From an uncultured Solirubrobacteraceae bacterium (lineage in GTDB: Bacteria > Actinomycetota > Thermoleophilia > Solirubrobacterales > Solirubrobacteraceae), in NCBI GenBank assembly GCA_964588985.1, contig CAZPQW010000019.1:1-64000 (forward strand): DNA of 64,000 bases, read 5' to 3'. A program made the position numbers and the translations under genes. The notes beneath the pieces are model-generated. The model had not been told where the DNA came from, ran no database searches, and worked only from the letters and a program-made list of their open reading frames with translations. Shown one piece after another: positions 41,781 through 62,984 of the stretch (positions are counted from its first letter, which is position 1; each line of letters begins with the position of its first letter).

Positions 41781-43366
41781 TGAGCACCAAGGAGACCAGC
41801 GCGCCGGAGACGGTTTCGATGCTGCGCCCGCTTGTGGAGGATCTGGAAGCACGCCGCGAGCGCATCAGGCTCGGCGGCGGCGAGGAGAAGATCGCCGCGC
41901 AGCACGAGCGCGAAAAGCTCACCGCGCGCGAGCGCATCGCGCTGCTCATAGACGAGGGCACGTTCGTCGAGCTGGGCATCCACGGCAAACCGCACTTCTC
42001 CCAGCGCGCGATGGACGGCGTCGACGCACCCGCCGACGGCGTGATCACCGGCTACGGCAAGGTCGACGGCCGGCTGACCGCCGTGTGCGCATACGACTTC
42101 ACCGTGATGGCCGGCTCGATGGGCATGACCGGTGAGATCAAGGTCACGCGCCTGCGCGAGCTGGCGCTGACCAAGCGGATGCCGTTCGTGTGGCTGCTCG
42201 ACTCGGCCGGCGCACGCGTGCAGGAGGCCGCCGGCGCGCTGTTCGCCGGCTCCGGGCACCTGTTCCGCGAGGAGGTCGTGATGAGCGGCGTGATCCCGCA
42301 GGTCGCCGCGCTGATGGGCCCGTGCGCCGCCGGCACCGCCTACATCCCCGGCCTCGCGGACTTCGTGCCGATGGTCAAGGGCCGCGGCTCGATGGCGCTC
42401 GCCGGGCCGCACCTCGTCAAAGCGGCGGTCGGCGAGGACGTCACCCAGGAGGAACTCGGTGGCTCGCGCGTGCACTGCCGCAAGTCGGGCGTGGGGGACT
42501 TGGAGGTCGCAAACGACGAGGAGTGCATCGAGCGGATCAAGCAGTACCTCTCCTACATGCCTCAGAACTGCGAAGAGCGCGCCCCGATCCGCGCCGCGGC
42601 CGACCCGATCGACCGCCGCGAGGAGGACCTCCTCGACGTGCTGCCCGAGTCCAACCGCAAGCCGTATGACATGTACGAGGTGATCAAGCGGATCGTCGAC
42701 GACGGCGAGTACTTCGACATGAAGGGCCAGTGGGCGAAGACGATCATCACGTGCTTCGCGCGCTTCGGCGGGCGGCCAGCGGGGATCGTCGCCAACCAGC
42801 CCAAGCAGCTCGGCGGCATCCTCGACAACGACTCCGCCGACAAGGCCGCGCGCTTCGTCAACCTCTGCAACGCGTTCGCGATCCCGCTCGTGTTCATCCA
42901 GGACGTGCCCGGCTTCATGGTCGGCACGAAGGTCGAGGCCGAAGGCATCATCCGACACGGCGCGAAGATGCTCTACGCGGTCGCCAACGCCACCGTGCCG
43001 AAGATCACCGTGATCACGCGCAAGGCCTACGGCGCGGGCTACTACGTCATGAACGGCCGCGCCTTTGAGCCGGACCTGATCGTCGCGTGGCCGAGCGCCG
43101 AGATCAGCGTGATGGGCGCCGAGGGCGTGGTGGAGATCGCGTTCCGCAAGCAGGTCGAAGCGGCCGAGGACCCCGCCGCGAAGAAGGCCGAGCTGGTCGA
43201 GGGCTTTCGCAAGATCTTCGAGGTCTACGGTGCCGCCGCCAACGATGTCATCGACGACGTCATCGACCCGCGCGAGACGCGCGAGACGATCTGCCGAGCG
43301 CTGGAGATGTCGGAGAACAAGAAAATCGAGCGGCCGTGGAAGCGGCAAGGAGTCGTACCGGTATGA
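41780..43366 (+). CDS. Acyl-CoA carboxylase carboxyltransferase (beta) subunit
   Basis: TARERI, DSAGAR.QE, GPCAAG, DVPGFMVG, RKAYGAG, IDPRETR. Confidence 0.93.
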   Translation: MSTKETSAPETVSMLRPLVEDLEARRERIRLGGGEEKIAAQHEREKLTARERIALLIDEGTFVELGIHGKPHFSQRAMDGVDAPADGVITGYGKVDGRLTAVCAYDFTVMAGSMGMTGEIKVTRLRELALTKRMPFVWLLDSAGARVQEAAGALFAGSGHLFREEVVMSGVIPQVAALMGPCAAGTAYIPGLADFVPMVKGRGSMALAGPHLVKAAVGEDVTQEELGGSRVHCRKSGVGDLEVANDEECIERIKQYLSYMPQNCEERAPIRAAADPIDRREEDLLDVLPESNRKPYDMYEVIKRIVDDGEYFDMKGQWAKTIITCFARFGGRPAGIVANQPKQLGGILDNDSADKAARFVNLCNAFAIPLVFIQDVPGFMVGTKVEAEGIIRHGAKMLYAVANATVPKITVITRKAYGAGYYVMNGRAFEPDLIVAWPSAEISVMGAEGVVEIAFRKQVEAAEDPAAKKAELVEGFRKIFEVYGAAANDVIDDVIDPRETRETICRALEMSENKKIERPWKRQGVVPV

Positions 43367-51020: not shown

Positions 51021-51407
51021 CTACAGCAACGTCTGCGCGAGCTCCCCCGACTCGTACATCTCGGTCACGATGTCGCAGCCCCCGACCAGCTCTCCTTCGA
51101 CGAACAGCTGGGGGATGGTCGGCCACTGCGAGATGGCCGAGAGCTCCTGGCGGATGCGCGGGTCGGGGAGGATGTCGACGGCCGCGAACGGCGCGTCGAG
51201 GTCCTGCAGCATCGCGACGGTGCGAGCGGAGAAGCCGCACGCGGGCGCCTCGGGCGTGCCCTTCATGAACAGGATCACCTTGTGCGAGGAGATCGCCTCG
51301 GCGATCGCGTCGCGGATCGGGTTTGACTCCTCGGCGGAGGGTGCGGCCGGCGCCGCGGGCGCGTCGCTCAACATCGGTATCGGGTCGAACTGCGGGCTGC
51401 TGGACAT
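51021..51407 (-). CDS. grxD: Monothiol glutaredoxin Grx4
   Basis: LFMKG, CGFS, WPTIPQL, GGCD. Confidence 0.93.
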   Translation of the reverse strand: MSSSPQFDPIPMLSDAPAAPAAPSAEESNPIRDAIAEAISSHKVILFMKGTPEAPACGFSARTVAMLQDLDAPFAAVDILPDPRIRQELSAISQWPTIPQLFVEGELVGGCDIVTEMYESGELAQTLL

Positions 51408-51423: not shown

Positions 51424-51669
51424 TCAGGGGGTCTGGATCTTGGAGGGAACCTGCGTCTTCAACGCGAGGGCGTGGATCGCGCCGCCGATCTCCGCCCCGA
51501 AGACGTCGTACACGAGGCGGTGCTGCGCGATCCGGCTGAGGCCGTCGAAAGCCTCGGCGGTGACCGTCGCGCGGAAGTGGTCGCCGCCGCCGGTGTAGTC
51601 CTCGACTTCGGCGTGCGCGCTTGGGATGGCGGCCTCTATGCGCGCCTTTATGTCCTCTGCGGAGGGCAT
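51424..51669 (-). CDS. BolA/IbaG-family protein
   Basis: DHF, QHRLVY, IHALAL. Confidence 0.9.
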   Translation of the reverse strand: MPSAEDIKARIEAAIPSAHAEVEDYTGGGDHFRATVTAEAFDGLSRIAQHRLVYDVFGAEIGGAIHALALKTQVPSKIQTP

Positions 51670-51756
51670 CTCGCACCTAGCGTAGAGGATCGCGAGCCGC
51701 TTCCGAGCACCGCTATACTTTGGAAAGTCTTGGAGCCATCCACAGGAGCGAAGCCG

Positions 51757-52110
51757 ATGATCGACATCACCGACAAGGGTGCGGAGAAGGTGCACGAGTT
51801 CCTCGCCTCCCAGCAGGCTGACGTGAGCGTCGCGGGACTACGGGTCGGCGTACGCGGTGGCGGCTGCTCCGGCTTCCAGTACCAGCTGGCGTTCGACGAG
51901 CAGCGCGACAGCGACGTGGTGTTCGAGAGCCACGGCCTCAAGTTGCTCGTGGACGGCGAGAGCCTGCAGTTCGTGAGCGGCTCGACGATCGACTACGAGG
52001 AGAGCCTGCAGGGCGCGGGCTTCAAGGTCAACAACCCCAACGTGGTCGCCGCTTGCGGTTGCGGCTCATCCTTCCGTGTAGCCGAGGAGGAGCAGGTCTC
52101 CGCAGTCTGA
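51757..52110 (+). CDS. A-type Fe-S carrier (ErpA/IscA/HesB)
   Basis: GGGCSG and CGCGSSF; AGGAG RBS. Confidence 0.93.
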   Translation: MIDITDKGAEKVHEFLASQQADVSVAGLRVGVRGGGCSGFQYQLAFDEQRDSDVVFESHGLKLLVDGESLQFVSGSTIDYEESLQGAGFKVNNPNVVAACGCGSSFRVAEEEQVSAV

Positions 52111-53901: not shown

Positions 53902-54675
53902 ATGACACGCATCAAGATCATGGGGCTCAGCCTCGTCGCGGTGTTCGCGATGGCCGCGATGGCCGCATCGAGCGCGTCGGCCACGCCGACGTTCTACGAA
54001 TGTGCGAAGGCAGCCAAGGTAGGCAAATTCTACACTGGCAAATACAACGACAAAAACTGCACCGAAGTCAACGGCAAATCCGAAGGTAAATACGAACTCA
54101 AAGAAGGCGTTGGCAAAGGCAAGGTCTTCAAGGGCAAGGGCGCAGCCGCCGTTCTGCACACGCCCGCCGTCGGTGGAGAAGTGACCTGCAAAGGCAGCAA
54201 GGACGAAGGTAAGAACACTCTGACGGGCCAGAAGGAAGTCAAAGTGACCTTCACCGGCTGCGCCAGCCTCGGTAAAACCTGCAACTCCGTAGGCGCGAAA
54301 TCAGGCGAAATCAAAACCAACCCGCTGGCCGGCACGCTCGGCTACATCTCCGCGACTGGCCCCAAAGTGGGCGTCAGCCTCACGGGTGAAGCTGGCAAAC
54401 CGTCCGCTGAATTCGCATGTGGAACGGGCGCAGGCTCGCTGAACATCGTCACCACCGGCGCCGTCATCGGCGAAATCACGGGTGACATCAACAAAATCTC
54501 GAAGGAAGCAACCGACGCGTTCACTGTCACGGGCGAAGGTTTCCAGACGGTGACCAGCTTCGAAGGTGGACCGCTGGAAGTCCTCGAGACGAGCATCAAC
54601 GGTTCGCCTAACTTCGAATCAGGCGAGCAGACGACGACCCTGAACAAGGGCGAAGCACTCGAGATCAAAGCGTAG
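53902..54675 (+). CDS. Secreted Cys-rich beta protein, paralogue A (putative major fibre/surface subunit)
   Basis: AAGGAG RBS; Sec signal ending ASA; 6 Cys; C-terminal GEALEIKA. Confidence 0.85.
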   Translation: MTRIKIMGLSLVAVFAMAAMAASSASATPTFYECAKAAKVGKFYTGKYNDKNCTEVNGKSEGKYELKEGVGKGKVFKGKGAAAVLHTPAVGGEVTCKGSKDEGKNTLTGQKEVKVTFTGCASLGKTCNSVGAKSGEIKTNPLAGTLGYISATGPKVGVSLTGEAGKPSAEFACGTGAGSLNIVTTGAVIGEITGDINKISKEATDAFTVTGEGFQTVTSFEGGPLEVLETSINGSPNFESGEQTTTLNKGEALEIKA

Positions 54676-54723
54676 TGATCCTGCCGCCAATGCTCCGCTC
54701 TGGAGCAGGCAGCTAGGTGAGTT

Positions 54724-54762
54724 GGCTTGTGGGGCTCCATTCGTGGAGCCCCACAAGTCTTT
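54724..54762 (+). terminator. Strong hairpin (terminator or mRNA stabiliser) after paralogue A
   Basis: GGCTTGTGGGGCTCCA-TTCG-TGGAGCCCCACAAGTC followed by TTT. Confidence 0.75.
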
Positions 54763-54842
54763 AAGCAGCAGCTCGGCACGCAATCAGCGGGTTCGGGTAT
54801 GGGCACCCTGTTGTGTGGGCAACTCAAGGGGAGGGCATACAG

Positions 54843-55601
54843 ATGCGACGGATGAGGATCGTCGGGCTCAGCACGCTCGCAGCACTGGCAGTGGCCGCGA
54901 TAGTGGCCGCGGGTGCATCGGCCGCGCCGACGTACTACGAATGCGCGAAAACGGCCAAAGGGGTTGGCAAATACCTGGTCGGCTGCACCGAAGAAGCCGC
55001 GGAAGGGGCGGGCACGTACGAAATCCAGGAAGGGATCGGCAAAGGCAAAGCGTTCAAAGGCAAAGGCGGAGCGCTGATCTTCCACATCCCGGCGAACGGC
55101 GGCGAATTCACGTGCAAAGCAAGCACCGAAGAAGGTCACTACACGGTCACCGGCCAGGAAAAAGTCAAAATCACGATCACCGGCTGCGAGATCCTCGGCA
55201 AAACCTGCCAGACGGCTGGTGCCAAATTGGGCGAAGTCAAAACGAACTCGCTCTCGGGATCCCTTGGCTATATCTCCGCCGTTGGGCCCAAAATAGGTAT
55301 CGCCCTAGCCGGTGAAGAAGGTACCCCGTGGGCCGTATTCGAATGCGGGAGCGGTGCCGGGACACTGCACTTCGTCGTCACGAGTGCTGTCATCGGCGAA
55401 CTCACCGGCGACGTCAACCACTTCGGCAAAGAAGTCACGAAGGCGTACACCGTGACCGGTGGAGGCTTTCAGACGGTCGCACGGTTCGAAGGTGGCCCGC
55501 TGCAGGTTCTCGAATACTCCATCAACGAATCGATCGTGACCGAAATGGGTATCGCGACCACGACGGCCGCGAAAGGCGAAAACCTGGAGATCAAAGCCTA
55601 G
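54843..55601 (+). CDS. Secreted Cys-rich beta protein, paralogue B
   Basis: GGAGG RBS; Sec signal ending ASA; colinear with paralogue A (PT.YECAK, GKGK.FKGKG, TGC..LGKTC, LGYISA.GPK, FEGGPL, LEIKA). Confidence 0.85.
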   Translation: MRRMRIVGLSTLAALAVAAIVAAGASAAPTYYECAKTAKGVGKYLVGCTEEAAEGAGTYEIQEGIGKGKAFKGKGGALIFHIPANGGEFTCKASTEEGHYTVTGQEKVKITITGCEILGKTCQTAGAKLGEVKTNSLSGSLGYISAVGPKIGIALAGEEGTPWAVFECGSGAGTLHFVVTSAVIGELTGDVNHFGKEVTKAYTVTGGGFQTVARFEGGPLQVLEYSINESIVTEMGIATTTAAKGENLEIKA

Positions 55602-55644
55602 GAGATCGCCTCGACGCGTGCCATAGGGGGCGCGGGGTCGGGCG

Positions 55645-55690
55645 ACGCGGCATGTGGAGATCGTGATGCCAGGTCCTCCACATGCCGCGT
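55645..55690 (+). terminator. 15-bp perfect inverted repeat after paralogue B
   Basis: ACGCGGCATGTGGAG...CTCCACATGCCGCGT. Confidence 0.6.
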
Positions 55691-55747
55691 GCGCTCAGAC
55701 GCCGATCGGCCGTTTGCGATGGCGAACAGAGACGCGATGGTTCTCCC

Positions 55748-55775
55748 TTGACAAGCGGCAAGCGGGCACTAGACT
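55748..55775 (+). promoter_or_regulatory. Candidate sigma70 promoter
   Basis: TTGACA-N16-TAGACT. Confidence 0.55.
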
Positions 55776-55800
55776 GCCTGCAGGGATGAGGGAGACGACG

Positions 55801-58800
55801 ATGAGCGACGCTGGCGGCGCTGGCGCTCAACTGCAGATGTCACGCCGCGCAAGAAGCGCCGTGCTCGGGATGCTGGGTGCGTGTGCGATCGGATCGTTGC
55901 TCATGAGTGCGCCTGCGCTCGCCCTCATCCAGCGCGGGCATGTCTTCAGTCCGTCCGCGTCGTTCGGCAGCAGCGGCTCCGGTGAAGGCCAGCTGTCGAG
56001 CCCGTCGGCCGTCGCCGTCAGCGAAGTGGGGGTCGCGGCGGGCGATGTGTACGTCGCCGATCGCGGCAACAACAGAGTCGAGCAGTTCGACTCATCGGGC
56101 AAATTCGTAGCTGCATGGGGCTGGGGCGTGAAGGACGGCGAAAAAGAAACCGAGGTCTGCACGAGCGGAGAAGGCTGCAAACCCGGTCTCGCGGGCGCGG
56201 GCAAAGGAAGCGAAGGCTTCCATCTCGGCAAAGGCCAGATCGTCTCGCCGATCGCGATCGCCGTGGACAACTCGAAATCCGCCTCGGCCGGCGACGTTTA
56301 CGTGGTGGCTAGCGTCGTGCCGGAAAAGTCCTATGTGGACAAGTTCGGACCGAATGGCGAATACATCCGTCAGCTCACGAAGAAAGAAGAAACCGAATTC
56401 AACGGTCGCGTGGAGGGCGTGGCGGTCGATGGCAACGGTGTGGTGTGGGTCGATTGGAGCGAACAGGAGATCACCAACTTCACCGGTGCGGAACCGAACA
56501 AACGCGTGAACAAAGAAGTGGAACTCGAATCGGGTGTCGGCAACCTCCGGCCGGGTCTGGCGGCGGACTCCAGCGGGCATCTGTACGTGAACTCCGAACC
56601 GGCTGAACTCTTCGAACAGGGCACGGAAGGCACCAGTGCCGAAGAAGGCACGGGCGAAGGCGGCGAAGAACCGTGCGAAGCGTCCCCCTGCTACGCCTCG
56701 AAGCTCGCCATGACGGGCGAAGAACCGGGCGCCGTGCTGACCTTGCACATGAACCACCAGAACACAAGCGGCATCGCTGCTGACCTTGGCACGAACGACG
56801 TCTACGTCGACAACCTCACGAGCGTGACCTCGTACAGCTCGACGGGACGGACGATCGAGCGCTTTGGCACAGGCGACCTGACGCACGCCGCCGGTCTCGC
56901 CGTTCACGCAGGCGACGGCGACGTCTACGTCGCGGACTCCGCGACGGGCAAAATCGATGTCTTCGTTCCCGAACCCGCCGCTGCCCCGAACGTCGACGAA
57001 ATATCGGTCGGGAAGATCACGACCACAACGGCCGAACTCGGTGCCGAGGTCGACGCCAAAGGGGCCGAAACGACCGTCACCTTCCAATACGGCACCTCGA
57101 GCTGCTCGGGAGGGTCGTGCGTGTCCGTCCCAGCGTCCGAACCGACGATCCCGACGAGCTTCGGCGACCGCAGCAGGAGCATTCCGCTGGAAGGTCTCAT
57201 CGCTGGCACCACCTACCACTACCGGGTCATCGCCAAAAACTCCTTCGGCACCTTGACGAGCGAAGAACGCACGTTCACGACGCAGTCCGCGACGTCGTTT
57301 GCGCTGCTCGACGGGCGGGGCTGGGAGCAGGTCTCGCCGTCCGCCAAGAACGGCGCAGGATTCGAATCGATCGCCAAGGAAGGCGGCGTGATCCAGGCAT
57401 CCGTGGAAGGCAGCGGCATCACGTTCGTTGGCACGGGGCCGGACGAAGTCGAAACGGAAGGCAACCGCAGCCCGGAATTCACACAGATCCTCGCCAATCG
57501 CGTGACCAACGGCGAAGGCAAGGCTGAATGGATCTCCAAGGACATCAACACGCCGAGCGACACCGCCACCGGGATTGAAGCTGGCAAGGCGCCGGAGTAC
57601 CAGGCCTTCTCGCCCGACCTCTCAGCCGCGATCGTCAGGCCCAAGTCGCCCGAACCGCTGCTTTCCGAAGAAGCCTCGGAAGTCACGCCGTATCTGCGCG
57701 AAAACGCGCACTGCGGGCCCGTGCCCTCGGCCTGCTACAAGCCGCTGGTAACAGGCAAGGAAGGCTATGCAAACGTGCCTTCGGGCACGAAATTCGGCGG
57801 CACCGTGAGCCGCGGACTCCAGCTTCTGTCGACGGAACCCGACCTGCGTCACGTTGTCCTGCAGTCGGAAGTCCCGCTCACCGAAGAACCGGCCGCGGCC
57901 GGTCCAAACCTGTACGAGTGGAGCGAAGGCCATCTCCAGCTGGTCAACGCGCTGCCGGGCGCCGGCGGCCCTGCGGTGGCGGCGAAGCTCGGTACGGATA
58001 ACAACGGCGTCAGGCACGCGCTCGCCGACGGCGGTGCAAGGGTCTTCTGGACCGCCTCGACGGACGTCCCGCTCGAAGGAAGTCAGCGCCTCTACGTCCG
58101 CGACATGGTCAAGGAAGAAACCCTGCGGCTCGACATGCCCCAGGAAGGCGTCAAAGAACAGACCTCCGAAGGAGCTGGCTTTGCCGCCGCCAACGCGGAA
58201 GGCTCGCGGGTGTTCTTCACCGACGTCGAACCGCTGACCCCTGGCGCGCGGGCCTCGCGCGAAGCGGGAGGCCCAGACCTGTACGCGTGCGACATCGGCG
58301 AACAGGCGGGCAAACTGACGTGCTCGCTGCACGACCTGACCGAAGACACCGAAGCCGGTGGCGAAACGGCTGACGTCCAGGGCACCGTGCTCGGGGAGAG
58401 CGAAGACGGCTCGACGGTTTACTTCGTCGCAAACGGGGTGCTCGACAAAACCGCCAACGCGCAGAGCGAAAAAGCCACACCCGGCGAATGCGAACTCGAC
58501 AACCGAGGCTCGCAGGCGACCTGCAACCTCTACGTCGAGCACTACAACGCGGGCGAAGGCGCATGGGAAGCGCCGAGGTTCGTCGCGACGCTCTCAAACG
58601 AAGACGAACCGGACTGGTACAGCTTTGGCCACGGCGGAGGTCTGACGGAAATGACCTCCCGCGTCTCGCCGAACGGCCGCTACCTGTCGTTCATGTCCGA
58701 GCGGAGCCTGACGGGGTACGACAACCGCGACGTCAACAGCGGCGCTCTCGACGAGGAGGTCTTCCTCTACGACACGAGCAGCGGCAAGCTCGTGTGCGCC

Positions 58801-59586
58801 TCGTGCGACCCGACGCAGGGCCGACCGACGGGTGTCTTCGACACTGGGGAAGTCAGCGAAGAAGGCTTGGGGCTGCTCGTGGATCGCCCGGAAACCTGGG
58901 GCGGACGGTGGCTTGCCGGCAGCGTCCCCGGGTGGACCCCGGTGAGCGAGAACCGCTCCACGTATCAGTCGCGCTACCTGTCCGACAGCGGCAGGCTGTT
59001 CTTCAACAGCGCCGACCAGCTCGTCCCAGCAGACACGAACTCCAAGGAGGACGTCTACGAGTACGAGCCCGCGGGTCTCGGCTCGTGCGCCAGCGAAACG
59101 GGCTGTGTCGGGCTCCTCTCCTCCGGCAGGTCGGAAAAGGAATCTGCGTTCCTGGACGCGAGCGTCACGGGCAACGACGTGTTCTTCCTCACCGCTGGCG
59201 CGCTCGTCGCGGGCGACGCCGACACGAACTTCGATGTATACGACGCGCGAGTCTGCGGGCCGGGTGGCTGTGTGTCTTCGAGCAGCGAATCGAGCGCGAC
59301 GTGCCAGGAAGTCGAAACCTGCCGTCCGGCGGCCCCCACCGAGCCGGTGTTCTCGAGTCCGGCGACCACGGCCCCTTCCGGCTCCAGCAACCTCACGCCT
59401 TCCCCGCCCGTGAAAACCCCGGTCAAAGTGGTCGTCAAACCGACCCGCACGCAACTGCTCGCGAAGGCGCTGAAGGCCTGCAAGAAGAACAAGAGCAAGC
59501 ACAGGCGAGCGGTTTGCGAAAGGGCCGCGCGTAAGAAGTACGCCGCCAAGAAGGCGAGCAAGAGCACGCGCAGGAGAGGTCGATGA
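55801..59586 (+). CDS. Large secreted protein: NHL beta-propeller, FN3-like domain, second propeller, Pro/Ser linker, basic Cys-pair tail
   Basis: Signal ending ALA; GSGEGQLSSP..VAV/VYVADRGNNRV NHL repeats; LIAGTTYHYRVIAKN FN3; S.DG..V.F repeats. Confidence 0.85.
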   Translation: MSDAGGAGAQLQMSRRARSAVLGMLGACAIGSLLMSAPALALIQRGHVFSPSASFGSSGSGEGQLSSPSAVAVSEVGVAAGDVYVADRGNNRVEQFDSSGKFVAAWGWGVKDGEKETEVCTSGEGCKPGLAGAGKGSEGFHLGKGQIVSPIAIAVDNSKSASAGDVYVVASVVPEKSYVDKFGPNGEYIRQLTKKEETEFNGRVEGVAVDGNGVVWVDWSEQEITNFTGAEPNKRVNKEVELESGVGNLRPGLAADSSGHLYVNSEPAELFEQGTEGTSAEEGTGEGGEEPCEASPCYASKLAMTGEEPGAVLTLHMNHQNTSGIAADLGTNDVYVDNLTSVTSYSSTGRTIERFGTGDLTHAAGLAVHAGDGDVYVADSATGKIDVFVPEPAAAPNVDEISVGKITTTTAELGAEVDAKGAETTVTFQYGTSSCSGGSCVSVPASEPTIPTSFGDRSRSIPLEGLIAGTTYHYRVIAKNSFGTLTSEERTFTTQSATSFALLDGRGWEQVSPSAKNGAGFESIAKEGGVIQASVEGSGITFVGTGPDEVETEGNRSPEFTQILANRVTNGEGKAEWISKDINTPSDTATGIEAGKAPEYQAFSPDLSAAIVRPKSPEPLLSEEASEVTPYLRENAHCGPVPSACYKPLVTGKEGYANVPSGTKFGGTVSRGLQLLSTEPDLRHVVLQSEVPLTEEPAAAGPNLYEWSEGHLQLVNALPGAGGPAVAAKLGTDNNGVRHALADGGARVFWTASTDVPLEGSQRLYVRDMVKEETLRLDMPQEGVKEQTSEGAGFAAANAEGSRVFFTDVEPLTPGARASREAGGPDLYACDIGEQAGKLTCSLHDLTEDTEAGGETADVQGTVLGESEDGSTVYFVANGVLDKTANAQSEKATPGECELDNRGSQATCNLYVEHYNAGEGAWEAPRFVATLSNEDEPDWYSFGHGGGLTEMTSRVSPNGRYLSFMSERSLTGYDNRDVNSGALDEEVFLYDTSSGKLVCASCDPTQGRPTGVFDTGEVSEEGLGLLVDRPETWGGRWLAGSVPGWTPVSENRSTYQSRYLSDSGRLFFNSADQLVPADTNSKEDVYEYEPAGLGSCASETGCVGLLSSGRSEKESAFLDASVTGNDVFFLTAGALVAGDADTNFDVYDARVCGPGGCVSSSSESSATCQEVETCRPAAPTEPVFSSPATTAPSGSSNLTPSPPVKTPVKVVVKPTRTQLLAKALKACKKNKSKHRRAVCERAARKKYAAKKASKSTRRRGR

Positions 59587-62500
59587 CGAGCGCTCGCTCT
59601 CGCGGTCGACGGCTCCTCGGTCTCCTCGTGGCCCTGTGTTCGAGCGTGACGCTCGTGGCGGCGTTCGGCGCCGCGCCGGCACTCGCGGCGGGATCGTGGT
59701 GGAGCCTGACCTCCAGTGCGGCGCCGACGAACCTGTCGCCGACAGAAGAAGGCCAGATACTCGTGATGGCCACCAACCGCGGTTATGCGGACGCGAAAGC
59801 CAGCGCCGGACACCCGCTCAAGGTGATAGACCACCTGCCGGTCGGGCTCGAAGTCGGTGCCGAAGGCGCGCGGGCCGTGTTCCTCAGCCTTCCGATCAGC
59901 TGTCCGGTGGCGACCGGACAGACCGTTGTGTGCGAACTGCCACAGGCGGTCCCCGCGGGGGAAGACCTGGAAATCAAAATCGGAGTGAAGGCAACGGTTC
60001 CCAGCGGTACGACCTTGAGCAACGAACTCGTGATCGAAGGCGGCGAAGGCCAAGCGGTCACGCCGCCTGTGAAAGCTCCGGTGCGCGTGGACAGCGCCGC
60101 GACCCAGTTCGGTGTCGAAAAGTACGAACTGAAGCCGGAAGGCGAAGACGGTTCCGTCGACGCGCAGGCCGGCTCTCACCCGTTCCAGCTCACGACCACG
60201 TTCAACCTCAACAAGACGATCGAATTCAACACCAACTACAAACACCTCGAAGCGACCGCTCCGATCCTCCCTCGCGATCTGCGCTTCGTGCTGCCGCCAG
60301 GCCTGCTCGGCAACATCACGGTCGTGCCTCAGTGCTCGGGCGTCGACTTCGCCACGATCGGCCAGGAGGACATCAACCTGTGTCCCTCCGACACCGCCAT
60401 CGGCACCGCGCGAGTGACGATCAACGAACCTACGGTGTTCGGAGGTGCGCTCACCGAAGCGGTCCCGGTCTTCAACCTGGCGCCCGAAAAAGGCGAACCC
60501 GCCCGCTTCGGTCTCGAGATCGACAAAGTGCCCGTCGTCTTCAACACCGCTGTGCGAACCGGCAGCGACTACGCCGTCGAAGTCAGCGTCGACAACGCGT
60601 CGCAGGCCGCGGCGCTGCTCAGCACCGAGGTGACGTTCTGGGGTGTGCCCGGGGACCCTCGTCACGACCAGTCACGTGGATGGGAGTGCATCGGTCACGG
60701 GCACTTCGTCGCCAAAGCCGAACCGGCGACGCCATGCGAACCGCTGGAAGAAACCAGCCCGCCGGCCTTCCTCACGCTGCCGACGTCCTGCTCGAGCACG
60801 CCGGTCACCACGGTCACCGGCGACTCGTGGCCCACCGGCCCGAGCCGCACCGTGAGCCAGCTTGCCGCCAGCTACGAATTCCCATCGGCGCTTCAGAACT
60901 GCGACCTGCTCGGCTTCTCACCCGCGATCAGCGTGGAACCGGAAACCCATGCGGCGAACGAACCGAGCGGACTGGCTGTCGACGTGACGGTGCCGCAGGC
61001 GTCGACGATCTCCGCCACCGAACTGGCCGAGGCCGACGCCAAGGAAGCCACCGTGGCGCTGCCCGCGGGCGTGCTCGCGAGTCCCGGCGCCGCCAACGGG
61101 CTGCAGGCGTGCTTCACCACGAGCATCGGTCTCGAAGCCGGGTTCTCCGAACCGAGCCAGCTCGAAAACGACCACTTCAACGCGGGCGCGGCGTCATGCC
61201 CCGACGGCTCGAAGATCGGCACCGCGGTGATCGAAACGCCGCTGCTCAAAAACCCGCTCGCTGGTTTCGTCTATCTCGCCAACCAGGACACGAACCTGGT
61301 GGAAGAAAAGCTGGTGCTGTATCTGGTCGCCGAAGACCCGGTCTCGGGCGTGCGCGTGAAGCTCGCGGGCGACGTGCACGTGGATCCGACGACCGGCCAG
61401 CTCGTCTCGACGTTCAAGAACACCCCGCCCGAGCCGTTCTCCGAGCTGAAGCTGAGCTTCTTCGGTGGAGGCCGCGCGTCGCAGTCAACGCCCGCGCAGT
61501 GCGGTACCTACACGACCCACGCGACGTTCGTCCCCTGGTCGGGGACCTCGCCGGCGCCCGTGTCCTCGAGCTTCGAAATCACCTCCGGACCGAAGGGCAC
61601 GGCCTGCGCCAACCCGCAGCCGTTCGCTCCGTCCTTCCAGGCCGGCTCGGTCGACAACCGGGCGGGCGCGTTCACGAACTTCTCGCTGACGATCGGCCAC
61701 GCCGACACCGACCAGTGGCTGCAGGCGCTGACCGTCCACCTGCCGTCGGGCGTCGCCGCGCTGCTCTCCACGGTCACGCCGTGCCCCGAACCCGCCGCGG
61801 GTCAGGAATGGGCGTGCGGGCCGGAAAGCCTGATCGGGCACTCGACCGCGAGCTCGGGCCTCGGCGAAGACCCGTTCACGCTCGGGGGCAGCGTGTATCT
61901 CACCGTGGGCTACGACAAAGCGCCGTTCGGCCTGCTGGTGGTCACGCCCGCGGACGCCGGCCCGTTCCACCTCGGCAACGTGGACGTGCGCTCGCGCATC
62001 GAAGTCGACCCGACCACGGCGGCGGTGACGATCGTCAGCGATCCGTTCCCGACATACGTGAAGGGCGTGCCGGTGCAGCTCAAACAGATCAACGTGACCG
62101 TCGATCGCCCCGGCTTCGAGTTCAACCCCACCAACTGCAACCAGATGGCGATCACCGGATCTCTCAGCAGTACTGGGGGGCTCAGCGAGTCGGTCTCCTC
62201 GCCCTTCCAGGTCGCAAACTGCGCGACGCTCCCGTTCAGCCCGAAGCTGACCGCGAGCACACAGGCGCAGGCGAGCAAAGCGAACGGAGCGGCGCTCAAC
62301 GTCAAGGTCGAATCGACGGGGCTCGGACAGGCGAACATCGCGAAGGTCGACCTGCAGCTGCCGGTCGCGCTGCCGTCGCGCCTGTCGACGATCCAGAAAG
62401 CGTGCCTCGAAGTGGTCTTCAAGGCCAACCCGGCCGCGTGTGACGAAGGCTCGAACATCGGCTACGCCACGATCCACACGCCGGTACTCAAGGACCCGCT

Positions 62501-62984
62501 CACCGGGCCCGCGTATCTCGTCGCCAAGGGCGGCGCGGCGTTCCCCGACGTGGAGTTCGTGCTCCAGGGCGAAGGGATCCTGCTGATCCTCGACGGCAAG
62601 ACGGACATCAAAAAAGGCATCACCTACTCGCGCTTCGAAGCCACCCCCGACGCGCCCTTCACGACCTTCGAAACGGTCCTGCCGACCGGGCCGCACTCCG
62701 CGCTCACAGCTTACGTCCCCGCCAGCCGCAACTTCAACGTGTGCGGCACGAAGCTGGAAATGCCCACCGAAATCGTCGGCCAGAACGGCGCGGTGATCAG
62801 GCAGACCACGAACATCGTCGCCAACGGCTGCGCCGCCTCTCACCCGCTTACCCGCGCCCAGCTGCTCGCGAAGGCGCTCAAGACGTGCAGGAAGGCCAAG
62901 AAGAAGAGCAAGCGCGTCAGCTGCGAAAAGCAGGCCCGCAAGAAGTACGGGCCGAAGGCCAAGAAGGCGAAGAAGAAGCATTAA
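59583..62984 (+). CDS. Large secreted protein with four tandem Cys-containing beta domains and basic Cys-pair tail
   Basis: ATGA overlap; signal ending ALA; LP.G...C...C..S.IG motif repeated four times. Confidence 0.85.
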   Translation: MTSARSRGRRLLGLLVALCSSVTLVAAFGAAPALAAGSWWSLTSSAAPTNLSPTEEGQILVMATNRGYADAKASAGHPLKVIDHLPVGLEVGAEGARAVFLSLPISCPVATGQTVVCELPQAVPAGEDLEIKIGVKATVPSGTTLSNELVIEGGEGQAVTPPVKAPVRVDSAATQFGVEKYELKPEGEDGSVDAQAGSHPFQLTTTFNLNKTIEFNTNYKHLEATAPILPRDLRFVLPPGLLGNITVVPQCSGVDFATIGQEDINLCPSDTAIGTARVTINEPTVFGGALTEAVPVFNLAPEKGEPARFGLEIDKVPVVFNTAVRTGSDYAVEVSVDNASQAAALLSTEVTFWGVPGDPRHDQSRGWECIGHGHFVAKAEPATPCEPLEETSPPAFLTLPTSCSSTPVTTVTGDSWPTGPSRTVSQLAASYEFPSALQNCDLLGFSPAISVEPETHAANEPSGLAVDVTVPQASTISATELAEADAKEATVALPAGVLASPGAANGLQACFTTSIGLEAGFSEPSQLENDHFNAGAASCPDGSKIGTAVIETPLLKNPLAGFVYLANQDTNLVEEKLVLYLVAEDPVSGVRVKLAGDVHVDPTTGQLVSTFKNTPPEPFSELKLSFFGGGRASQSTPAQCGTYTTHATFVPWSGTSPAPVSSSFEITSGPKGTACANPQPFAPSFQAGSVDNRAGAFTNFSLTIGHADTDQWLQALTVHLPSGVAALLSTVTPCPEPAAGQEWACGPESLIGHSTASSGLGEDPFTLGGSVYLTVGYDKAPFGLLVVTPADAGPFHLGNVDVRSRIEVDPTTAAVTIVSDPFPTYVKGVPVQLKQINVTVDRPGFEFNPTNCNQMAITGSLSSTGGLSESVSSPFQVANCATLPFSPKLTASTQAQASKANGAALNVKVESTGLGQANIAKVDLQLPVALPSRLSTIQKACLEVVFKANPAACDEGSNIGYATIHTPVLKDPLTGPAYLVAKGGAAFPDVEFVLQGEGILLILDGKTDIKKGITYSRFEATPDAPFTTFETVLPTGPHSALTAYVPASRNFNVCGTKLEMPTEIVGQNGAVIRQTTNIVANGCAASHPLTRAQLLAKALKTCRKAKKKSKRVSCEKQARKKYGPKAKKAKKKH

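Follow-up and report, generated by a model that had tools for sequence, protein, structure and literature searches.

Synonymous codons are assumed to be silent on the destination of the residue they encode. In Streptomyces, the codon TTA and its tRNA, bldA, mark a class of genes: essential genes are not known to contain TTA, and a single such codon in a regulator suffices. The present study concerns the glutamate (Glu) codon GAA in an uncultured Solirubrobacteraceae bacterium (assembly GCA_964588985.1). It starts from a window of 64,000 nucleotides (contig CAZPQW010000019.1, positions 1-64,000, forward strand), in which four genes for predicted secreted proteins, here termed A to D (53902-62984, all in one direction), use GAA for 80-88% of their Glu codons, compared with 21% genome-wide. 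This bias was found to belong to a general rule, by which glutamates located outside the cytoplasm are written GAA and cytoplasmic ones GAG. As with bldA/TTA, a high-GC actinobacterium, a rare A-ending codon, a single tRNA and a functional class of genes are involved. In contrast to bldA/TTA, housekeeping genes write about 10% of their Glu codons as GAA and exported segments 80-100%, and the use of GAA follows protein topology.

Several described systems are related. In Magnaporthe oryzae, the mRNAs of cytoplasmic effectors are enriched in AA-ending codons in a manner dependent on thiolation of the tRNA wobble uridine, U34 (bioRxiv 10.1101/2025.11.10.687658, citing Li et al. 2023a). As far as the available text of that preprint goes, both systems have a secreted class that prefers GAA and AAA against the genome bias, and both involve wobble-uridine tRNAs. 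The Magnaporthe effect, however, is eukaryotic, acts per gene, includes CAA, splits two secretion routes and leaves the whole secretome poorer in AA-ending codons than the genome, whereas here nearly all exported residues are concerned, CAA is not, the codon flips at membrane segments and the tRNA is rebuilt. Modification-tunable transcripts and the Trm9-dependent translation of GAA and AGA codons define stress regulons at the gene level, shown by proteomics (PMC6307160, PMC4689569). In the accessible portions of these papers, codon-biased gene sets are likewise tied to wobble-uridine tRNAs; in contrast, our pattern lies below the level of the gene and shows no sign of regulation. Alloacceptor tRNA remoulding is, according to the part of the source available, documented mainly in mitochondria and eukaryotes (PMC4783518). 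As in those cases, no canonical tRNA of the anticodon in question was found alongside; unlike them, ours concerns a free-living bacterium, a structured D-loop insertion and location-specific codon use. A non-canonical D-arm, for example that of tRNA-Sec, can act as an identity element for dedicated enzymes (PMC7609411). In tRNA-Sec this arm has a 6-bp stem and a 4-base loop, whereas here a separate hairpin lies within the D-loop, an arrangement that the available text of that paper does not describe. Finally, rare codons occur in bacterial secretory signal sequences and 5' ends (PMC2833160), which also ties secretion to non-preferred codons in bacteria. That effect, as presented in the accessible part of the paper, concerns the 5' end only and rare codons generally, whereas in the exported genes studied here the first 40 codons are the least GAA-rich (0.44-0.68, compared with 0.75-0.80 downstream) and only Glu and lysine (Lys) are affected. 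Within the collection of papers searched, we found no earlier report of topology-linked codon use in bacteria, nor of the unusual tRNA described below.

Results

Codon use in exported and cytoplasmic proteins

The window is one contig of a 3.41-Mb draft genome (G000; window contig C19; 48 contigs, 68% GC, 95.9% complete). A log-odds open reading frame caller gave 2467 genes, covering 78% of the genome; given that it merged GAA with GAG and AAA with AAG, the choice of genes is independent of the variable tested. GAA accounts for 11768 of 57240 Glu codons (0.206), AAA for 0.181 of Lys codons and CAA for 0.092 of glutamine (Gln) codons. A minimum of 10 Glu codons was reached by 2027 genes, which are distributed over successive tenths of GAA fraction as 776, 587, 242, 103, 69, 83, 53, 51, 41 and 22. 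Examined for bimodality, this distribution exhibits a second shoulder at 0.5-0.9, which is tied to predicted signal peptides. With 250 of the 2027 genes at a GAA fraction of at least 0.5, the shift is not confined to four genes, as the initial annotation had stated. GAA-rich genes are scattered, single genes making up 136 of 162 runs. They are also diverse: 201 of them fall into 127 sequence clusters, of which 110 are singletons, and one expanded family was rejected as the cause on this ground. The four window genes lie together in one single-linkage cluster of 51. GAA-rich proteins are high in Ser, Thr, Asn, Gly and Lys and low in Arg, Leu and Asp.

Export was predicted with a home-made heuristic that requires three elements: an n-region of basic character, a hydrophobic stretch free of charged residues, and a site resembling AxA. 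The frequency of such signal peptides was 7-11% at GAA fractions below 0.3, 55% at 0.5-0.7 and 74-86% above 0.7. They were found in 166 of the 250 genes with GAA of at least 0.5 and in 190 of the 1777 others (odds ratio 16.5), and the proposed link to secretion is thus supported. When an interior segment was scored as a control, 114 of 969 GAA-poor genes were positive compared with 95 of 969 at the N-terminus, while the corresponding numbers for GAA-rich genes were 5 and 68 of 88. As the interior rate matches the N-terminal rate in the GAA-poor class, the signal peptides in that class are at noise level.

Between mature signal-peptide proteins and cytoplasmic proteins (1496 genes), the GAA fraction is 0.48 versus 0.13 and the AAA fraction 0.31 versus 0.12. 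The remaining codon families stay within about 0.04 and are host-like, as initially described; the largest other gaps are 0.04 (GTC, CCC, CCG and AGG) and 0.05 (AGC). The rare A-ending codons are unshifted (CAA 0.08 versus 0.09, ATA 0.04 versus 0.04, TTA 0.00 versus 0.00), and GCA, ACA, CCA, GTA and CTA remain within 0.01. Only Glu and Lys codons differ, which agrees with the earlier exclusion of a low-GC import and of a general drift to A-ending codons. Neighbouring-base context was rejected as a cause, since the GAA gap holds across all preceding and following bases. Expression optimisation, the other explanation that had been singled out for checking, was also rejected: the Pfam-confirmed genes for EF-Tu, EF-G, RpoA, S10, L3, L2, S3, S17, L5 and S5 prefer GAG and AAG (GAA 25/263, AAA 11/163; EF-G alone contains 11 GAA).

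As a side observation, a contig end truncates the EF-Tu gene (C29, 1-843) and the EF-G gene lies near the start of contig C41; a break in the assembly at a duplicated tuf gene would fit this arrangement.

Codon switches at membrane segments

A change-point scan showed that flips between GAA and GAG along genes coincide with hydrophobic segments. The clearest proteins, whose topology was fixed by Pfam domains, are listed here with GAA/GAG counts, together with the flagellar parts.

FtsH: extracellular domain between two membrane segments 10/1; cytoplasmic AAA+ and protease part 6/50
Second FtsH: 5/2, then 0/41
CHASE2-cyclase: CHASE2 sensor 18/3; cyclase domain 1/17
Two ECF sigma factors, each joined through a membrane segment with a C-terminal part lying outside: 4/21 then 21/0; 1/17 then 8/1
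Two SpoIIE phosphatases whose N-terminal sensor domains lie outside: 8/1 then 2/20; 7/2 then 1/23
TPR-TM-PKD protein: 5/10, then 13/0
Exported flagellar parts without signal peptide: flagellin 16/6, FlgL-like 12/3, FlgK 22/12, FliD 28/3, hook/rod 8/9; sum 86/33
Cytoplasmic flagellar parts FliM/N, FliJ, FliI and FliG: sum 16/126

The first 30 residues past the last membrane segment contain 11 GAG and 4 GAA in seven proteins, so that the switch shows little lag. In 448 membrane proteins, oriented by a codon-blind positive-inside rule, GAA makes up 2707 of 5418 Glu codons outside and 818 of 3751 inside. Within genes, the outside-inside difference was positive in 112 and negative in 57 cases (174 genes with at least 4 Glu codons per side). 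The rule holds whatever the export route, be it a signal peptide, the outer domain of a membrane protein or the flagellar apparatus. A strict twin-arginine motif had only four matches, one clearly cytoplasmic; the other three have GAA fractions of 0.78, 0.45 and 0.37, a suggestive result from very few cases.

We are therefore confident that outside glutamates are written GAA and cytoplasmic ones GAG throughout the genome and the genus, that Lys follows more weakly with AAA outside, and that the switches occur at membrane segments.

Two proteins deserve separate mention. In one of the ECF-sigma fusions (C4 122880-124397), the outer C-terminal part carries Glu, often paired, every 6-7 residues or so from 418 to 499, and 21 of 21 are GAA. 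A secreted NHL/RHS protein of 2754 aa (C1 24738-33002) has GAA 160/GAG 42 up to residue 2646, while in its last ~100 residues 12 of 12 Glu codons are GAG, as if this tip had another origin or destination.

Selection on single sites

Codon choice was compared site by site between G000 and a second genome of the genus, G005 (median identity 68%). At conserved residues, the odds ratio for retention of the same codon was 16-24 for Glu and 10-38 for Lys, compared with 1-3 for most pyrimidine-ending pairs (maximum 4.2). Shared GAA sites numbered 350, against 209 expected from within-gene shuffling. The effect is also present in strictly cytoplasmic proteins, where the gene-stratified odds ratio is 13.3 for Glu and 16.1 for Lys and 0.8-2.6 for other two-codon pairs; four-fold families there mostly gave 1-6, with a few higher values on small counts.

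Evolutionary rate alone was rejected as a cause: the median GAA fraction of cytoplasmic proteins is 0.09-0.12 across identity classes from below 50% to above 80%, and still 0.09 in the class below 50% (22 proteins). In exported genes, the GAA fraction is 0.49 at conserved Glu and 0.73-0.75 where the outgroup lacks Glu and the surroundings are poorly conserved. Two pressures seem to act on each Glu codon, one towards GAG everywhere, strongest at conserved sites, and one towards GAA for residues outside the membrane.

The tRNA that reads GAA

Full tRNA typing covered G000, G005 and G051, a genome of the same family; in G000, two Infernal hits below the cut-off of E <= 0.01 (C5:122935-122993 and C28:7448-7512) were left out. 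G000 has a canonical tRNA-Glu(CUC), which reads GAG. A canonical tRNA-Glu(UUC) was found neither among the 46 Infernal and 48 ARAGORN calls of G000 nor among all 47 Infernal-detected tRNAs of G005, whose assembly is a single contig. Relaxed ARAGORN settings gave 438 calls, including four labelled Glu(ttc), one at window 41873-41945; these were judged false, none being among the Infernal hits at E <= 0.01. The special tRNA anticipated by the initial annotation was found, in that the sole UUC tRNA is the following.

Contig C27, 31243-31339, - strand: unusual tRNA, anticodon UUC, 97 nt, left unnamed by ARAGORN

Its anticodon loop, CUUUCAA, gives the anticodon UUC, and it scores 66.2 bits against RF00005 (threshold 29). 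The acceptor stem is common to tRNA-Arg(ACG) and tRNA-Arg(CCG). In a lenient alignment, which is indicative only, the body matches the tRNA-Lys(UUU) of relatives at 64 of 75 bases (G045; about 85%), tRNA-Arg(ACG) at 61 of 69 and canonical tRNA-Glu(UUC) at 59 of 63. A copy with the ends of the unusual tRNA in the genome G011 carries the anticodon UUU.

The D-loop contains about 23 extra bases that can form, by manual pairing, a 7-bp hairpin capped by UUCG; a free-energy fold gave a shorter stem at this position. Across nine distinct sequences, the cloverleaf is 99.2% paired, compared with 40-54% when the partner columns are slid. Two of the seven hairpin pairs change on both sides and one on one side, and eight of the nine have a UNCG loop. 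Full-length copies of the tRNA occur in 18 of 19 genomes of the genus, the remaining genome being 63% complete, and in only 2 of 91 genomes of the order, both from this genus. D-loop inserts had no Rfam family match. In four RNA-library runs from four studies, contigs span the tRNA and its hairpin unbroken and continue into dissimilar flanks; they may represent DNA or precursor RNA.

The U34-modification enzymes, which the initial annotation had proposed to inventory together with the tRNAs, were recovered in part. MnmA, responsible for 2-thiolation, scores 212 bits, whereas MnmG gave only weak partial GIDA matches of at most 38 bits and TrmE_N had no match in the profile search of G000.

Several further tRNAs were noted. 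Related scaffolds with D-loop inserts of ~40-135 nt, again with no Rfam match, would all read A-ending codons.

L093, L098 and L100 (G011): anticodon UUU, three identical copies
L094 (G001): anticodon UGU
L096, 1351-1559 (G002): anticodon UUG
L090, 1351-1554 (G025, another family): anticodon UUC, insert of ~130 nt; G020 shows the same 3' half

A stretch of G009 (C8 109849-128477; L088, L095, L099) contains one full unusual tRNA and multiple further copies of its 3' half, all inside 20 kb, which look like attachment sites left by integrated elements. An extra tRNA of 73 nt with the anticodon UAA occurs in G000 (C5 104171-104243, - strand) and G005 (L030 10084-10156, - strand). It has no long variable arm, shows a Glu-like layout with a 6-bp anticodon stem and a 3-base variable region, and coexists with the normal 87-nt tRNA-Leu(UAA); TTA accounts for 162 of about 91,000 Leu codons in G000. 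Finally, G005 encodes an 85-nt tRNA (L031 1283-1367) with a Leu-like body and a long variable arm, whose AUC anticodon would read GAU, a codon for Asp.

Comparison with relatives

The gap between signal-peptide and cytoplasmic proteins recurs in G005 (GAA 0.59 versus 0.18; AAA 0.36 versus 0.14). No effect was observed in the three outgroups: G051, with a canonical tRNA-Glu(UUC) (GAA 0.04 versus 0.05; AAA 0.01 versus 0.01), G019, of another family and also with the canonical tRNA (GAA 0.12 versus 0.14), and G025, which has the long-insert UUC tRNA (GAA 0.03 versus 0.06). The codon effect thus co-occurs with the unusual tRNA; with so few and related genomes, this describes a pattern rather than testing it statistically. 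BLAST has low sensitivity for tRNA queries, a family-level search having missed the canonical tRNA-Glu(UUC) of G051, so that a BLAST miss does not amount to absence. In G051 (single contig, L260-L288), AAA makes up about 1% of Lys codons, and neither tRNA-Lys(UUU) nor tRNA-Leu(UAA) is among its 45 ARAGORN calls.

The four genes of the window

The genes from which the study started, and the cytoplasmic genes nearby, are as follows.

53902..54675, + strand: gene A, predicted secreted protein of 257 aa; GAA 18/GAG 3, AAA 16/AAG 11
53902..53982, + strand: predicted signal peptide of gene A (home-made heuristic and reading by eye), ~27 residues, ending in ...SSASA
54843..55601, + strand: gene B, paralogue of gene A, predicted to be secreted; GAA 21/GAG 2, AAA 17/AAG 1
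~54843-54923, + strand: predicted signal peptide of gene B (heuristic)
55801..59586, + strand: gene C, large secreted NHL-repeat protein (NHL 31.5 bits); GAA 90/GAG 19 from 55801
59443..59583, + strand: C-terminal tail of gene C, basic and containing two Cys; all Lys AAG
59583..62984, + strand: gene D, predicted secreted protein of 1133 aa; GAA 53/GAG 10
~59583-59687, + strand: predicted signal peptide of gene D
62850..62981, + strand: basic C-terminal tail of gene D with two Cys; all Lys AAG
51757..52110, + strand: erpA-like Fe-S assembly gene (Fe-S_biosyn match), cytoplasmic comparison; GAG 10/10, AAG 4/4, counted by eye
51021-51407, - strand: glutaredoxin gene, cytoplasmic neighbour; GAA 1/GAG 9
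51424-51795, - strand: BolA gene, cytoplasmic neighbour; GAA 1/GAG 6

The hand counts of the initial annotation for A (18 of 21 Glu as GAA), B (21 of 23 Glu as GAA, 17 of 18 Lys as AAA) and erpA were reproduced, and the motifs said to keep GAG (RVEQF, WEQVSP, LYEW, DEEVFLYD and EDVYEYE, and LEIKA in both paralogues) are all GAG on recheck. Its Glu/Lys-specific shift is present for both residues; the Lys part is weaker and uneven, with AAA shares of 0.59 (A), 0.94 (B), 0.39 (C) and 0.27 (D).

Genes A and B are paralogues with 60% identity, and gene A matched no Pfam or NCBIfam family. Gene B probably starts at ATG 54843; its reading frame opens at GTG 54813, from which the count is GAA 21/GAG 3. 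The frame of gene C opens at 55654 (GAA 90/GAG 22), and its predicted signal peptide runs from ATG 55801 (~55801-55923). The leftover GAG codons of gene C lie at motif-like spots. Gene C ends 4 bases inside gene D, so that the ATG of the latter lies in the overlap (59583-59586), which suggests coupled translation. The basic tail is the sole part common to C and D, with 19 of 30 residues identical, and has no known family. AAA is common elsewhere in both proteins; the all-AAG tails may reflect avoidance of A runs or a part with a different fate.

Gene D belongs to a large, paralogous family with 23 matches in G000 and similar numbers in relatives, at least 20 per genome in most relatives of the genus. 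More than 10 copies lie within one 200-kb stretch of G005 (contig C1, ~1.99-2.20 Mb), and further relatives were found in soil metagenome-assembled genomes labelled Solirubrobacteraceae or Solirubrobacterales. At 87 homologous loci in other genomes, the longest open frame has a median GAA fraction of 0.79, and 82 of the 87 reach at least 0.5. Four of the five loci lowest in GAA are open frames of 284-492 codons, too short for a homologue.

Discussion

This study revealed that in this lineage the choice between GAA and GAG tracks the final location of the residue, and the whole mRNA, the export route and the state of the ribosome therefore do not explain it. Taken as a whole, the best explanation, which we hold tentatively and with somewhat less than even confidence, is the location rule combined with decoders of GAA and GAG that are not equivalent. 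As to the mechanism, it is possible, if doubtful, that the two decoders differ in what they deliver. GAG would be read by the canonical tRNA-Glu(CUC) and GAA by the remoulded 97-nt UUC tRNA. GAA would mostly yield Glu, the remoulded tRNA being either less faithful, with a minority of another residue, or charged with a variant of Glu. Selection would then clear GAA from cytoplasmic and conserved positions and favour it at exposed positions outside. A stronger form of this proposal, which we consider improbable, is that GAA and GAG are no longer synonymous in the genus. Under GC pressure, GAA would have become nearly unused and, with no canonical tRNA to be found, been taken over by the remoulded tRNA, with the D-loop hairpin as a new identity element, delivering outside the cytoplasm a residue that resembles Glu but differs chemically, or a purposely mixed one, so that the Glu codon box would be split by compartment.

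Several observations weigh against non-equivalent decoders. The amino acid encoded by GAA was evaluated by a likelihood test using BLOSUM62 conditional probabilities on outgroup alignments. Glu was the maximum-likelihood assignment for both gene classes, leading Gln by 48 log units across 508 sites of exported genes and Asp by 184 across 494 sites of housekeeping genes. Housekeeping sites with GAA align to Glu in outgroups in 48% of cases and those with GAG in 54-55%, with Asp next in frequency. GAA also occupies the conserved second Glu of the AEE stretch of FtsH and a conserved Glu near the C-terminus of flagellin; the latter was located by alignment to solved structures, since the flagellin homologue search gave only relatives at least 75% identical and no outgroup. 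Only one gene of the glutamyl-tRNA synthetase (GluRS) family was found, the surroundings of the unusual tRNA contain no telling neighbour, and the tRNA-Lys(UUU) of G000 looks canonical, yet Lys shows the parallel, weaker effect. No dedicated enzyme was found, and a benefit of ambiguous decoding outside the cell would have to be assumed. On the side of the data, signal peptides and membrane topology were predicted throughout with crude home-made heuristics. A meta-profile of GAA around membrane boundaries was flat (42 and 38 boundaries, many of them false segments from the crude predictor), and codon use was sampled in two genomes of the genus (G000 and 640 kb of G005) and the three outgroups, which are related and not independent. 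With regard to the non-standard decoding suggested in the initial annotation, the likelihood result rejects every alternative among the standard amino acids; it may still be compatible with a non-standard residue that resembles Glu, or with ambiguity at a low level. The same test assigned AAA to Lys in both gene classes. HExxH motifs provided very few cases, with seven in exported proteins, three of them in GAA-rich genes.

Kinetic coupling survives best among the other explanations, although we regard it as unlikely. GAA and AAA would be slow because of scarce tRNAs, keeping exported chains unfolded or matching the pace of translocation, while GAG and AAG would be fast for cytoplasmic domains. 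GAA and AAA are indeed minor codons shunned by ribosomal-protein genes, and where GAA or AAA is conserved in cytoplasmic proteins, the sites are similar to the conserved pause sites with rare codons that have been described in the literature. A comparable proposal, slow AA-ending codons for effector folding, is made by the Magnaporthe authors in the available text of their preprint (bioRxiv 10.1101/2025.11.10.687658). However, exported proteins show no enrichment of any other rare A-ending codon. Moreover, GAG resumes within 30 residues past the membrane segment, when the upstream outer domain would, judging from the usual length of the ribosomal exit tunnel, still be emerging. Flagellar substrates, which are generally held to leave after translation, are also GAA-rich. 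Given that codon choice follows location with little lag, independently of the route and with no other rare codon involved, we rank a difference in the delivered product slightly above kinetics, and we leave about one third of the probability to causes not thought of.

A regulatory switch of the bldA/TTA type, in which the abundance or U34 modification of the GAA-reading tRNA would gate a surface regulon, appears highly unlikely. A single GAA reader, a well-supported MnmA (212 bits) and ~250 GAA-enriched genes speak for it, as do the parallels with the U34-thiolation effectors of Magnaporthe and the GAA-rich transcripts of Trm9, within what the available parts of those sources report (PMC4689569, PMC6307160). 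Nevertheless, cytoplasmic and essential genes have GAA at about 10-13% of their Glu codons (0.13 in the cytoplasmic set), including the 11 in EF-G, and the tRNA reading it cannot be dispensable. Codon choice also flips at membrane segments inside individual mRNAs, a feature neither required nor accounted for by a gate on entire messages, and CAA, the third codon usually hit by such U34 modifications, is unshifted. The gate on a gene class put forward in the initial annotation is not upheld.

Still less probable is a composition artefact, by which acquired or weakly selected genes would drift towards A. The regional GC content of 0.605-0.66 over 54-60 kb, compared with a background of ~0.68, would fit, as would the low third-position GC and high CAA of some GAA-rich genes and the much expanded gene D family. 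Against it, all other codon families match the host, and most GAA-rich clusters and runs consist of single genes. The FtsH and flagellar genes, which are inherited vertically, divide in codon use by domain or location, fast-evolving cytoplasmic proteins stay GAG, and GAA is conserved site by site between species.

Least probable by our estimate is full reassignment of GAA to another standard amino acid, such as the Lys or Arg at which the tRNA body might hint: the failure to find a canonical tRNA-Glu(UUC) while a tRNA with an Arg acceptor stem and a Lys-like body carries UUC would be expected under sense-codon reassignment, and sister lineages nearly without GAA (0.04-0.06) are what the codon capture model predicts, but the maximum-likelihood assignment to Glu in both gene classes and the conserved Glu of FtsH and flagellin reject it, exported GAA sites align to Lys in at most 6% and to Arg in 6-10% of cases in outgroups, and gene A, balanced when GAA is read as Glu (28 basic and ~28 acidic residues, by eye), would carry roughly +36 with GAA as Lys.

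The choice of Glu codon predicts the location of a residue almost categorically, even for individual domains of a housekeeping protein like FtsH, and this split coincides with an unusually built tRNA having replaced the customary GAA decoder. Any cause would be new, whether the two codons differ in product or in fidelity or a novel kinetic coupling is at work, and would bear on the interplay between translation and the cell envelope and on the splitting of codon boxes. In these abundant, uncultured soil bacteria, codon use could serve to predict topology and the secretome and to flag proteins exported without a signal peptide. The lineage may also be a place to study the evolution of the genetic code part-way through.

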